Positions 53,808 to 63,954 of a stretch of 64,000 bases of DNA are shown here, piece by piece. This stretch comes from Candidatus Velthaea sp. GTDB taxonomy: Bacteria; Vulcanimicrobiota; Vulcanimicrobiia; Vulcanimicrobiales; Vulcanimicrobiaceae. The notes under the pieces were generated by a model that did no database searches, was not told the origin of the DNA, and saw only the letters and a program-made list of their open reading frames with translations. Position 1 is the stretch's first letter; every line of letters starts with the position of its first letter. Location of the stretch: the NCBI GenBank assembly GCA_050012475.1, contig JBEKHC010000009.1, positions 1 to 64,000 of the forward strand, in the 5' to 3' direction. A program made the position numbers and the translations under genes.

Positions 53808-54260
53808 TTGAACACGAGCATTACGTCAAAACTCACCACAGCGATCGCTGCTGCGACATTCGCGGGCGCGATCGGCTTATTCGCTGCCGTTCCGGCCGCC
53901 GCACAGCCGGTTCCGAGCTACGCGAACCCCAACACGGACGAGACCATTCACGGCACGATTGCCGCGGTCAACGGTCCGTACAACATCAGCGTTCGGGACG
54001 CCCGCGGATTCATCGATAACGTCACGTTGCATCAAGGGACCATCATCAACCCGACCGGGCTTACGCTCGAACCGGGACAAAGCGTGACGATCGTGGGCCG
54101 CAACGACGGCAGCGCCCTTGCTGCCAATGAAATCGATACACCCTACGCGCTCTACCCGGCCTACGGCTATTACGGCTATCCCTACCCGTACGGCTTCGGA
54201 CCGTCGTATCACGTCGGGCTGCGCTTCGGCCGCGGTTTCGGCTTCGGCTTCCGCGGCTAA
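53808..54260 (+). CDS. Secreted hypothetical protein (beta-rich, Tyr/Gly-rich tail)
   Basis: AGGAG RBS, signal peptide, VTLHQGTIINPTGL, YGYYGYPYPYG tail. Confidence 0.75.
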   Translation: MNTSITSKLTTAIAAATFAGAIGLFAAVPAAAQPVPSYANPNTDETIHGTIAAVNGPYNISVRDARGFIDNVTLHQGTIINPTGLTLEPGQSVTIVGRNDGSALAANEIDTPYALYPAYGYYGYPYPYGFGPSYHVGLRFGRGFGFGFRG

Positions 54261-61115: not shown

Positions 61116-61311
61116 CGATTGCTTGACCGGAGGGACACAAACCGCGTTCGTAGCACTTGCGCTACACACGCTTTACTCAAAATTGGGACTTTCGTATCAC
61201 ATCGCCGCGCCTTCGGCCAGCATAAAACGAAACGTTTGTGCCGAAGTCCAGTGGTTGAGAAAAGCCGAAAGAGCTAATAGAGCATGACCGCATCGGAGTT
61301 TTAGCGCATCC

Positions 61312-63954
61312 ATGGCATGTAGCGTGTGCTCGTCCGGCAACCATCCGCGGAGTGTTGTTTGTCGGGCATGCGAACCGCAACTTCACACTCGTGGTGAGTT
61401 CGACGCCGACAGCACCGTCTTCGAATCGCACCTCACCGGGCTCGCCAAGCGAGTTCAGATTGCGCGCGGCTCGAATCCGGGCATCACCGAAGTGCTCCGG
61501 CGGCGTGCCCCGGCCGTCGGCGGTTCACCGCGCGGCCGGCAGCCAGCGCCCTCGATCGACGTCGACAAGCTGCGCGTCGTGTTCGGCGGTCCGCACGGCG
61601 CGCGCATCGAGCCGCTCACCGTCTTCGAAGCACCATATGCCGAGCAAGCGCGACGCCAGCCGGCACTCGACGTTCCAGAAACCGACATGCGCGGTCAAGC
61701 CGGCGCGGCGATTTGGCAAGCCCTTGCGAGCGGAGCGACGGTCTTGCGCGTGCGCGGTAGCGAGGGATCGGGAGCAACGACGCTCATGAAGCGGCTCGCC
61801 GCGGGAGCGCGTCAGCACGGCTTCCCCTACGGCGCAGTCTACGCGGCAAACGTCGTCGGACCGCCGGCCGACGTCGCGCAGCGAATCGCCGCCCTGCTCG
61901 ATCCAGCGCAGCGGCTGCGCTTCTACACTGCTTCGGATCGGACGCAATTCATCGCCGGCCGCCGCTTTTTGGTGCTGCTGGACGGCGCGAATTTGACCGT
62001 GGAGGACGTCGCCGATTTGAGCCGGGCGCTGCCCGACGTGCGCTTCGTGATCGCCGATGCCCCGGCGCTTGCCCAGCCCGACGCGGTCGTCCTTGGTCCG
62101 CTCGCCGCGAACTGCGTCGTAACGCTCCTCGAAGAGACCTACGGACGGCGGCTCGACGATGAAAACTTGCGTGCGGCGCTCGATCTCTGCGCGACGGCGG
62201 GGTCGTTGCCCGGCTACACCCGGCTCATCGGAGTCGCCGCCCGGGTGCTCGGGCGGTCGTTCATCTCGCTGAGCCTGAGCCACAATTCCGGCGAGGCGAT
62301 CATTCGCGAATTGGTCGCCGGCCTGCCGCCGGCGGAACTGCGCATCCTGAGCATGCTGGTCCTCGCCCGCGTGCCGCTGGCCGCTCATCACGTCGCCTAC
62401 GTCGTTCGCAGCGGCGAGGTTCGCGCTTGTTTGGACCATCTCGTCGAGTACGAATTGATCGGTACATGTGGCCCGACGGGCGACTTGTATGAAGTTCCCG
62501 GACACGTGGAACATCTCGTTCCGCCGCTTACCGACACCGACACGACGTTGGCGCGAATCTTCGATGTGTTGGGCGACGTCTTCGATTCATGGCAGGCCGT
62601 CCCGGTTCTCGACCGTCAGCTGACGGCAGCCGAAGCGCTGCTGCAAAGCGCGGCACAGCGTTCGGCTTGGAAGAGCGTCCTTGCGCTTGGTCCGCGCGTC
62701 GCCGACGCTTTGGCGGCTCGCGGTGCGTTCGGCGGTTGGGGCCGCGTCCTCGATCTCGTCGAAGCGGCGGCAACGCAATTGGGTGATGCAGCGATGCTCG
62801 ACTTCGCGCGCCACGATCAGGGCATCCGGGCCGTGGTCATCGGCGACAACGAGCGCGCCGTCGCTTCTTTGGAATCAGCCGCGCGAGCACGGCGATCCGC
62901 CGGCGACGACAGCGGTGCCGACGCAAGTGCTGCGGCGCTCGCGCTCGTGGAGCGCAAGCCGGCTGCCCCGGCGCCGGCTGCAGCACCGCCCGCCCGCCCG
63001 CCCGAGCCGGCTCCCGCGCCGTCGCACTCGTCGCTCCCGGGCCGCAGCCTGCTCCTGCTTGGTTTCGGCATCATCGCCGTAGCCATCATCGTGCTGTCGC
63101 TGCACTTCAAGCCGAGCGCCGCCCCAGTCATCCGCGAACTCTCCGTCAATCCGGTCGCCGGCGGCGGCGGGGCTGCCCGGCTATGCGTCGATGCGGCCAA
63201 CGCCGCCGTCGTCGAGGTTTTTCCGGATGCCGTGCGACTGCCCAGCGGCAAACACTGTTTGCACGTTGCGCCGGCGGCGACGACGACCTACGTCGCGGTC
63301 GGAACGTCGCTCGACGGCCGCCAAGTTCGCCGCGCGGTTACCGTCGCCGTGAAGCTCCCTGCGCCGCCGGCGCCGGTGCGCATCAGCCGCTTCAGCGTGA
63401 GCCCGGCGCGCGTCCTGGCCGGCGGATTCGCTCGTCTGTGCTACGCCGTCAGCGGCGCGCACGAGCTGCGCATCGTCCCGCGCGTCGGTCCGCTCACGCA
63501 GCTTCGCTCGTGCCAAACCCTGACATTGCGCGAGCCGCACCGCTACCGCTACACGCTTTCGGCGCTCGGCGAAGACGGACAAGTCGCCGTCCGCGACACC
63601 CACGTCGACGTCGTGGCCGCGGCGCCGCCTCCACCCCGGGTTCAGAATCACAGCACGCGCGGCAGCGGTTTGATTCAGCGCGCGGTCTATCAATTCGACG
63701 CGACGCCCAACGTCGTCGAGCGCGGTCAGGCGACGTCGCTGTGCGTGGGGGTCGGCCGGCCGGCTCGGGGATTCGTCACCCATGTCGGCGCGCTTTCCTC
63801 GGGGATCACGCGCTGTTATCGCGTTCAGCCACGCAAAACGACGGTCTACCGTTTGTATGTCGCTTTGGCGGACGAAACCGCGGTTCAGAGCGTCACGGTC
63901 GCGGTTCGGCCGGCTTCCAGACGCGTGGAGGCGACCCGCACCGAGCGCCGTTAA
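61312..63954 (+). CDS. Membrane-anchored multidomain protein: Zn ribbon, STAND/NB-ARC-like NTPase (degenerate), helical repeats, TM, three Ig-like repeats
   Basis: CSVC...CRAC; GSEGSGATT; FLVLLDG; GSLP; Pro/Ala linker; TM LLLLGFGIIAVAIIVL; three repeats of the form (F)SV.P..V..G....LC. Confidence 0.75.
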   Translation: MACSVCSSGNHPRSVVCRACEPQLHTRGEFDADSTVFESHLTGLAKRVQIARGSNPGITEVLRRRAPAVGGSPRGRQPAPSIDVDKLRVVFGGPHGARIEPLTVFEAPYAEQARRQPALDVPETDMRGQAGAAIWQALASGATVLRVRGSEGSGATTLMKRLAAGARQHGFPYGAVYAANVVGPPADVAQRIAALLDPAQRLRFYTASDRTQFIAGRRFLVLLDGANLTVEDVADLSRALPDVRFVIADAPALAQPDAVVLGPLAANCVVTLLEETYGRRLDDENLRAALDLCATAGSLPGYTRLIGVAARVLGRSFISLSLSHNSGEAIIRELVAGLPPAELRILSMLVLARVPLAAHHVAYVVRSGEVRACLDHLVEYELIGTCGPTGDLYEVPGHVEHLVPPLTDTDTTLARIFDVLGDVFDSWQAVPVLDRQLTAAEALLQSAAQRSAWKSVLALGPRVADALAARGAFGGWGRVLDLVEAAATQLGDAAMLDFARHDQGIRAVVIGDNERAVASLESAARARRSAGDDSGADASAAALALVERKPAAPAPAAAPPARPPEPAPAPSHSSLPGRSLLLLGFGIIAVAIIVLSLHFKPSAAPVIRELSVNPVAGGGGAARLCVDAANAAVVEVFPDAVRLPSGKHCLHVAPAATTTYVAVGTSLDGRQVRRAVTVAVKLPAPPAPVRISRFSVSPARVLAGGFARLCYAVSGAHELRIVPRVGPLTQLRSCQTLTLREPHRYRYTLSALGEDGQVAVRDTHVDVVAAAPPPPRVQNHSTRGSGLIQRAVYQFDATPNVVERGQATSLCVGVGRPARGFVTHVGALSSGITRCYRVQPRKTTVYRLYVALADETAVQSVTVAVRPASRRVEATRTERR

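Follow-up and report, generated by a model that had tools for sequence, protein, structure and literature searches.

A conserved pseudo-NTPase branch of a large family of predicted transmembrane STAND proteins in Candidatus Velthaea

Bacterial STAND/NLR proteins have been studied as sensors inside the cell. Classical STANDs depend on the lysine of the P-loop; NRC1, Apaf-1, PH0952, and MalT are soluble and keep it. We analyzed a stretch of 64,000 nucleotides from Candidatus Velthaea sp. (GCA_050012475.1, contig JBEKHC010000009.1, here called the window), in which positions 61312–63954 of the + strand encode an 880-residue membrane-anchored STAND protein with a degenerate P-loop, P0001. P0001 shares with the four proteins a nucleotide-binding domain (NBD), HD1, and winged-helix domain followed by a helical arm or TPR part (Z 14–18.5), and unlike them it has neither the P-loop lysine nor an effector domain and carries a transmembrane (TM) helix together with an Ig-like part predicted to be periplasmic.

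Inactive STANDs are already in print. The bacterial iSTAND, iSTAND2, and GT4/HEPN-linked inactive STANDs, which have eroded NTP-binding motifs, were described computationally, and the inactive STANDs of ternary or heteromeric MoxR-vWA systems were proposed to be nucleic-acid receptors (PMC7159879, PMC8195603). P0001 is like all of these in being a bacterial STAND domain with eroded motifs, but in the accessible descriptions none of them has an inactive STAND that itself bears a TM segment plus ectodomain, and the P0001 gene was not seen to have a MoxR or vWA neighbor. Degenerate NLRs such as Pb1 and RXL are listed for plants by RefPlantNLR (PMC8559963). A TM NLR with Ig domains is also in print, separately: AjNLRC4 of the sea cucumber is a membrane NLR whose outside Ig domains bind microbes and polysaccharides and for which oligomerization is reported (PMC8699970), although an earlier note on this DNA, made from sequence alone, had known of no characterized example of such an architecture. 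Both proteins are membrane-bound with Ig domains outside and a STAND domain inside; AjNLRC4 differs in its animal NACHT, its N-terminal Ig domains, and its two TM helices, and because its domain order is opposite to that of P0001, we regard it as an analogue by convergence. Among bacterial NACHT proteins, STANDs with C-terminal TM segments are a named category, and either K115A or K115R abolishes defense by bNACHT01 (bioRxiv 2022.07.19.500537). These proteins belong to the NACHT clade, need the Walker A lysine in the member tested, and are described, in the accessible text, with no ectodomain series. A 2026 survey describes intracellular sensors and identifies STAND-TPR proteins as phage sensors (PMC13581612); a six-term look-up in its seven smaller supplements gave no match to the family treated here, which may sit unnamed among the 589 clades of that survey. 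No published study of the family was found in a literature search whose coverage mostly excludes subscription journals. As judged from sequence comparison, the P0001 clade is a derived pseudo-NTPase branch of a large transmembrane STAND (TM-STAND) family with swappable outer domains. This branch, which is real and conserved, is what is new here.

Fold and nucleotide-binding site of P0001

An AlphaFold2 model of P0001 made from 11 sequences (mean pLDDT 68; residues 1–126 and linkers low) contains an alpha/beta domain, helical domains, a helix at residues 578–598, and three beta domains, and leaves residues 1–90 effectively unmodelled (pLDDT below 50). The best Foldseek match was the STAND-TPR protein PH0952 (E 2e-8), and VIA-align gave Z scores of 18.5 for the NB-ARC part of NRC1 (8BV0), 16.9 for Apaf-1 (3SFZ), 15.3 for PH0952 (6MFV), and 14.4 for MalT (8BOB); the closest structures are STANDs in the closed, ADP state. 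The superposition with NRC1 aligned 279 residues over positions 125–409 of the model with a root-mean-square deviation (rmsd) of 4.0, and that with PH0952 spans positions 124–551. As predicted by the model and in agreement with the earlier note, the center of P0001 is a STAND/NB-ARC-type fold consisting of a P-loop domain, HD1, a winged helix, and helical repeats. The basis of this assignment is the model together with the relatives; the Walker A-like string alone is weak (the pattern GxxxxGx[TS][TS] occurred in 1,393 of 20,000 shuffles), and the Pfam P-loop matches of P0001 are sub-threshold. The Pfam scan of P0001 returned no effector domain and the NCBIfam scan no match at all; the relative P0012 exceeds the Pfam NB-ARC cut-off (28.2 versus 23.5 bits). 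A sequence search of the PDB gave no match with alignment A1 (clade rows only) and only weak matches with P0012.

The NB-ARC-type NBD, supported by the VIA-align match to NRC1, comprises residues 124–262 (61681–62097). Its Walker A motif GSEGSGATT (residues 149–157, 61756–61782) has Ala155 in place of the lysine, encoded by codon 61774–61776, and its Walker B motif FLVLLDG (residues 219–225, 61966–61986) keeps the first aspartate and has lost the second acid, so that both motifs read as the earlier note had reported them. HD1 and the winged helix follow at residues 263–405 (62098–62526). Here the GxP-like motif had been placed at GSLP, but the G-[HN]-P of the family aligns to S298-L299-P300, and its glycine is lost; no MHD-type histidine was seen in this part. 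Residues 406–548 (62527–62955) form arm or TPR-like helices according to DSSP and the PH0952 match, and nine of the 16 relatives in the alignment match TPR_12 (E≤0.01), which bears out the TPR-like segments noted earlier.

The losses extend over the clade, for which we used 10 relatives from the first search together with P0013 from G001, the genome closest to the host genome G000, and, from a cluster look-up, P0068, the complete version of the fragmentary P0011. None of the 11 clade proteins having the domain retains the Walker A lysine (alanine in nine, valine in two), a residue that every one of 148 family rows used for comparison has (100%). All 11 also lack the second acid of Walker B (arginine in 10, glycine in P0001), and the first aspartate, D224, is kept in all. 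The GxP glycine (position 298) occurs in 0/11 and P300 in 11/11, R127 of the hhGRExE motif is kept throughout and E130 in 1/11, and G149 of the P-loop is replaced in three proteins. The 811-residue relative P0010, known from one contig only, has suffered an in-frame loss of the NBD, with 33 of 139 columns filled, and retains the zinc ribbon, HD1, winged helix, TPR part, TM helix, and three repeats. We exclude that Ala155 is a sequencing error or a private allele: besides the clade-wide absence of lysine, the codon was uniform in three of four read runs, which came from three studies, and the fourth run had no cover.

The ratio of nonsynonymous to synonymous rates (dN/dS, NG86) against L043, one of two close-relative loci (L043 and L044), was 0.24 for the NBD and 0.25 for the whole gene; in pairs with P0013, which are near saturation, the domain gave 0.33–0.36. 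The cytoplasmic core, about 430 residues long, retains roughly 60% identity and has a dN/dS of 0.20–0.24. The open frames and the whole-gene ratio of about 0.25 reject pseudogene decay, and the degenerate domain is under purifying selection, at a ratio like that of the rest of the core. In the trees, the 11 clade proteins form one branch (support 100/100, length 1.17), and since all outgroup rows have the lysine, its loss is derived. The exact sister of the clade is not settled by the trees, and a single origin of the Lys-to-Ala and Lys-to-Arg exchanges is neither supported nor rejected by the approximately unbiased (AU) test (p 0.073).

The parent TM-STAND family and its partner gene

Alignment A2 matched 32 of 401 genomes of the phylum, with about half of the matches being unrelated P-loop proteins. 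At 14 non-clade loci, the core recurs together with a TPR signature of the W[AV]LHQ.G type or an equivalent, and 13 of them have GK[T/S]; the remaining one ends before the P-loop. The family shares with P0001 the core, the TPR signature, and the TM position, and its Vulcanimicrobiota members also share the Cys-pair repeat. Profile A3, which consists of 16 cores including two clade rows, found 2,105 representative clusters at E≤1e-30 among 1.84 billion, some of which may not be TM members. In the best 150 of these together with P0001 (151 rows), the lysine is present in 148, DD in 123, and a hydrophobic stretch behind the TPR helices in 140, whereas P0001 has lost both the lysine and DD. The score ranking favors intact motifs, as two members from Kitasatospora with GRS ranked lower. 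The clade proteins P0002 and P0013 are within the top 150, although it must be considered that the profile includes two clade rows; independently of that profile, A1 finds a Lys-bearing member in genome G003 (E 1.6e-19). Family rows including the clade were split from 13 soluble STANDs with a support of 100/99, and a grouping of the P0001 clade with three soluble NB-ARC-TPR rows was rejected by the AU test (p 0.0003). G011 contributed one row to A3/A4 and to three of the trees; no conclusion depends on it alone, nor on G285, which supplied one of the repeats described below. The architecture of P0001 is not unique, given that a large family shares its core and TM helix, and the dead NTPase proposed in the earlier note belongs to a derived branch of that family, whose top members mostly keep GK[T/S] and DD.

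What varies in the family is the outer part. Of 147 new family proteins, 101 were picked by hand in sets of 49 and 52 and scanned with Pfam. ASH-type Ig domains were found in 24 (14/49 and 10/52), CARDB in 11 (five and six per set), LysM in eight (four per set), fn3 in 4/49 and 3/52, Big_9 in 3/49, DZR in 3/49 and 2/52, and PASTA and LGFP in 1/52 each. The LGFP domain of P0135 (687–738) is located after the TM segment at 514, and the other outer domains presumably lie after it as well. Family members carry taxon names such as Anaerolineae, Chloroflexota, and Armatimonadota, and look-alike clusters in the Atlas belong to Acidobacteriota, Cyanobacteriota, Actinomycetota, and Chloroflexota; their database names are NB-ARC domain-containing protein, ATP-binding protein, or choice-of-anchor D protein. 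One member, P0082, has about 390 extra N-terminal residues, the end of which we take to resemble a CHAT protease tail. In the Kitasatospora proteins P0015 and P0016, Walker A reads GxxGxGRS, with arginine for lysine, and besides a TM helix they have a Pro/Ser/Thr tail lacking a folded outer domain; a plasmid search with the Kitasatospora protein gave no match.

Several Lys-bearing TM-STAND genes are followed by a gene for a protein of about 140 residues (L045:5898–8766, L046:4931–7790, L047:6248–9425, L049:6991–10151, L054:5789–8844). In genera g34 and g43, both proteins start with similar Gly/Asn-rich beta motifs, and Pfam has no family for the small protein. Its profile matched 10 family genomes and gave one weak match among the 401. 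In each of the 10, the profile also matched a second site at a distance of a few kb (E 1e-5 to 8e-5), and in the eight genomes also matched by A2 (G118 and G395 not being among them), this site falls on the N-terminal end of the STAND frame. Judged by sequence, this arrangement looks like an amyloid-signaling pair with a membrane receptor. The known pairs with bacterial amyloid signal sequences (BASS) are alike in that an N-terminal NLR motif is shared with an adjacent small gene, as seen here in 10 genomes, but their effector motif is C-terminal, whereas in the Lys-bearing TM-STAND pairs the motif is N-terminal on both proteins; the accessible BASS text makes no mention of transmembrane NLRs (bioRxiv 2020.01.06.895854). 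The pattern [IVL]Q[IVLM]G, which is similar to the G-phi-Q-phi-G core of RHIM/BASS3 (bioRxiv 2020.01.06.895854), is present within the first 260 residues of 67 of the 147 family proteins, a count that has no chance control, and within the first 140 residues, a shorter window, of none of 12 clade proteins.

P0001 has lost both the motif and the partner. For its clade, we found no effector domain with Pfam, no N-terminal motif, and no adjacent partner, and a profile search for the small protein found none in G000, G001, or G003. Lys-bearing members in G005, G299, and G229 are also devoid of the motif, with no such partner seen, and the loss of the motif is therefore independent of the loss of the lysine. 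A homotypic adaptor was considered and rejected, as zinc-ribbon, hairpin, and TPR profiles gave no convincing second copy in G000. Some Lys-bearing relatives (L053:595–10314 in G003, L056, L045, L047, and L054) lie beside genes for baseplate J, an extracellular contractile injection system (eCIS) core, amidase, and patatin.

Outer part, N-terminus, and gene locus

Behind the TPR part, a Pro/Ala linker (residues 549–577, 62956–63042; 37% mean identity, pLDDT below 50) leads to a single predicted TM helix at residues 578–598 (63043–63105; Kyte–Doolittle hydropathy 2.8, hydrophobic segment 579–597), in agreement with the earlier note. A hydrophobic TM segment is present in all clade proteins tested. 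The model then shows three Ig-like repeats, all of which contain a Cys pair: repeat 1 at 63121–63351 (C625/C649), repeat 2 at 63373–63621 (C710/C734), and repeat 3 at 63679–63915 (C811/C835). Three beta repeats with Cys pairs had been foreseen, but at about 77–83 residues, they are shorter than the assumed 90. The pair occurs in 19 of 19 repeats from 17 loci, one of them from G285, although the search profile was itself made from Cys-bearing repeats. Repeat 3 is the best-conserved part of P0001 (80% mean identity, dN/dS 0.08 versus L043). Modelled alone (pLDDT 92), it is a seven-stranded sandwich covering the whole repeat, with full-length structural matches at Z 7–8.8, including ICAM-5 (8.6, rmsd 2.5), PKD (7.7), and SoxY/Z (8.5–8.8), among which no single Ig-like family stands out. 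Pfam gave no match for the repeats, and Foldseek gave none for repeat 3 at E≤0.001. A diversifying, antigen-type sensor is unsupported, as the repeats are the best-conserved parts.

The topology of P0001 is likely N-in/C-out, with the repeats predicted to be periplasmic and disulfide-bonded. This is supported by the Cys pairs, by VKOR and Omp85, which both exceed the cut-off in G000, by the Gram-negative wall of a cultured relative, Vulcanimicrobium alpinus (PMC9758169), and by wall-binding domains in relatives. The charges flanking the TM helix of P0001 (one Lys/Arg before, two after) are mildly informative; in 11 of 12 other clade proteins, Lys/Arg are at least as numerous before it as after it. 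Since the host is diderm, as judged from Omp85, the repeats are likely periplasmic and not outside the cell. Of the outside ligand envisaged in the earlier note, an ectodomain beyond the inner membrane thus appears to hold, and the ligand itself would be an envelope component.

At the N-terminus, residues 3–20 (61318–61371) contain an unmodelled zinc-ribbon-like CxxC-x10-CxxC. Its cysteines C3, C6, C17, and C20 are present as the earlier note had seen, and the pattern appeared within the first 40 residues in 0 of 20,000 shuffles, but it is only optional in the clade: the strict pattern is found in 6 of 12 proteins and is clearly absent from P0008, P0009, P0013, and P0068, and DZR matches in P0004/P0005 are sub-threshold only. 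A modelled beta-hairpin (residues 81–102, 61552–61617) occupies the site of a Gly/Asn/Gln-rich motif of many family members, a motif absent in P0001. Taken together, we consider the domain anatomy of P0001 described here to be very probably correct.

The P0001 gene (GC 0.74/0.54/0.78 by codon position) is single-copy in the 5.36-Mb genome G000, with no paralog in a tblastn search, and a related-locus search returned only one genome locus and two metagenome loci. Thirteen of the 20 runs listed as containing the stretch have a peat label. On the 5' side lies a flavin amine oxidase gene and on the 3' side, past the window, an RND transporter gene (C9 64006–67233; ACR_tran in L043), followed at C9 68141–69040 by an open reading frame that presumably encodes a phosphoribulokinase and is syntenic in L043. 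The earlier note had asked whether homologs share a conserved neighborhood: the amine oxidase and RND genes flank the gene in G000 and L043, synteny is limited to L043/L044, and ABC and pirin genes are found in G001, so a functional tie to the RND or amine-oxidase neighbors was rejected. Two short upstream motifs (61181–61248, + strand) are common to L043/L044, where the rest of the spacer differs; the long form of each is unique in G000, and they are likely promoter or regulator sites. A sequence scan found no sigma-70-type promoter and no terminator at the gene. Contigs from RNA libraries cover 61176–61931 in one run and 61150–61364 in another, which is a weak hint only because the runs were chosen by this gene. 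Elsewhere in the window, 53808–54260 encodes a small, exported-looking protein with a Tyr/Gly-rich tail, whose contig is by far the deepest in RNA run X17 (depth 77 versus 2–9 for the other contigs listed). G000 also encodes four soluble STAND-type proteins (C12:49164–50840, C2:33011–35641, C33:30422–31951, C29:14478–17198) with a Lys-bearing Walker A and, by eye, apparent GGDEF, winged-helix, LuxR, or XRE heads.

Possible functions of P0001

The reading that we tentatively prefer, though with considerable reserve, is that P0001 is a hydrolysis-dead inner-membrane receptor or scaffold that is clustered from the periplasm and has no ATP cycle. Its three Ig-like domains, which are predicted to be periplasmic, would bind a constant and probably acidic component of the envelope, such as peptidoglycan, lipopolysaccharide (LPS), or an envelope protein, and this binding would cluster the cytoplasmic STAND-TPR part. 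Because P0001 has no effector domain and no adjacent partner gene, output would proceed via a partner encoded elsewhere. With its catalytic residues lost, its scaffold preserved, and its distal repeat conserved most strongly, P0001 fits a constant ligand. In addition, its ectodomain is more basic, with a net charge of +7.1 per 100 residues, than five periplasmic control stretches (−2.9 to +1.7).

A number of observations weigh against this reading. No ligand, partner, or output was identified for P0001 in this analysis. The gene was found in only two of four genomes of the genus, in a housekeeping neighborhood that differs in G001, and the dN/dS figures rest mainly on one pair, P0001 versus L043. 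DsbB was not found in the profile search of G000, and the charge comparison of the ectodomain involves five control stretches only. The same Cys-pair Ig-like repeat is carried by STAND-less TM proteins (L011:6443–7309 in G003, L055:6425–7675 in G231), and hence, the outer module is able to function independently of the inner one. Finally, R127, G152, G154, and D224 are kept in 11/11 clade proteins and T156 in 10/11 (serine in the other), and arginine was gained at the second Walker B position in 10/11; from these residues, nucleotide binding by the clade proteins may be possible despite the loss of the lysine.

The latter residues are also what speaks for a rewired site, in which the Walker B arginine at position 225 would replace the lost lysine and Mg-ATP or ADP would be bound and left unhydrolyzed, giving a slow or locked switch. 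The match of the model to closed, ADP-state structures would fit as well. P0001 itself, however, has glycine at this very position, G149 is lost in three of the 11 proteins, P0010 is devoid of the whole domain, and the retained Gly, Thr, and Asp residues may serve the fold only, which in sum makes a rewired site rather unlikely.

To a similar degree we doubt that P0001 is a structural tether, in which the Ig-like repeats would fasten the inner membrane either to the wall or to the outer membrane, and a relic STAND-TPR part would remain as a spacer or anchor that conveys no signal. The conservation of the distal repeat, the basic ectodomain, the STAND-less proteins in G003 and G231, the NBD deletion in P0010, and the lack of an effector domain in P0001 would all be expected of a tether, but a core of about 430 residues held at about 60% identity would be a costly spacer, and patchy presence within a genus is unusual for a structural envelope protein.

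That P0001 senses envelope attack by phages or predators and fires a defense effector in trans seems improbable. STAND-TPR proteins are phage sensors (PMC13581612), and some Lys-bearing relatives lie beside the baseplate J, eCIS core, amidase, and patatin genes or beside the partner with a shared N-terminal motif. The clade, however, lacks motif and partner and lies among housekeeping genes, its ectodomain is conserved and not diversifying, and PADLOC matched none of P0001, P0012, P0068, P0078, and P0080, while P0069 had a single weak TPR match. Compared with Avs-type anti-phage STANDs, P0001 differs in having no N-terminal effector in Pfam, no PADLOC match, and housekeeping neighbors. Least probable of all is a sensor or decoy that works with a Lys-bearing paralog, like the paired sensor and helper NLRs known in plants: several soluble STANDs are encoded in G000, but the searches of G000 and G001 turned up no further family member, G003 has a Lys-bearing member and no full-length Lys-less one, and the gene has no SARP-type neighbor at any of the three clade loci examined.

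Returning to the clustered receptor, a wider scenario is possible, albeit doubtful, in which trans-envelope NLRs constitute a large, so far undescribed class in bacteria. In these, a swappable periplasmic or wall-binding domain would drive a cytoplasmic STAND ring, through which an N-terminal motif of amyloid-like character would be templated onto a partner protein, and the Velthaea lineage would be a disarmed derivative without motif, partner, and lysine that signals by clustering alone. If true, the STAND ATP cycle would be dispensable once a receptor is membrane-anchored. In any case, P0001 leads to a family of at least 2,000 sequence clusters that combine a STAND switch and a membrane anchor with exchangeable wall-facing domains. 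This family contains a natural series consisting of an intact site, the Lys-to-Arg and Lys-to-Ala exchanges, and a whole-domain deletion, which makes the role of the STAND ATP cycle testable when a receptor clusters from across the membrane.

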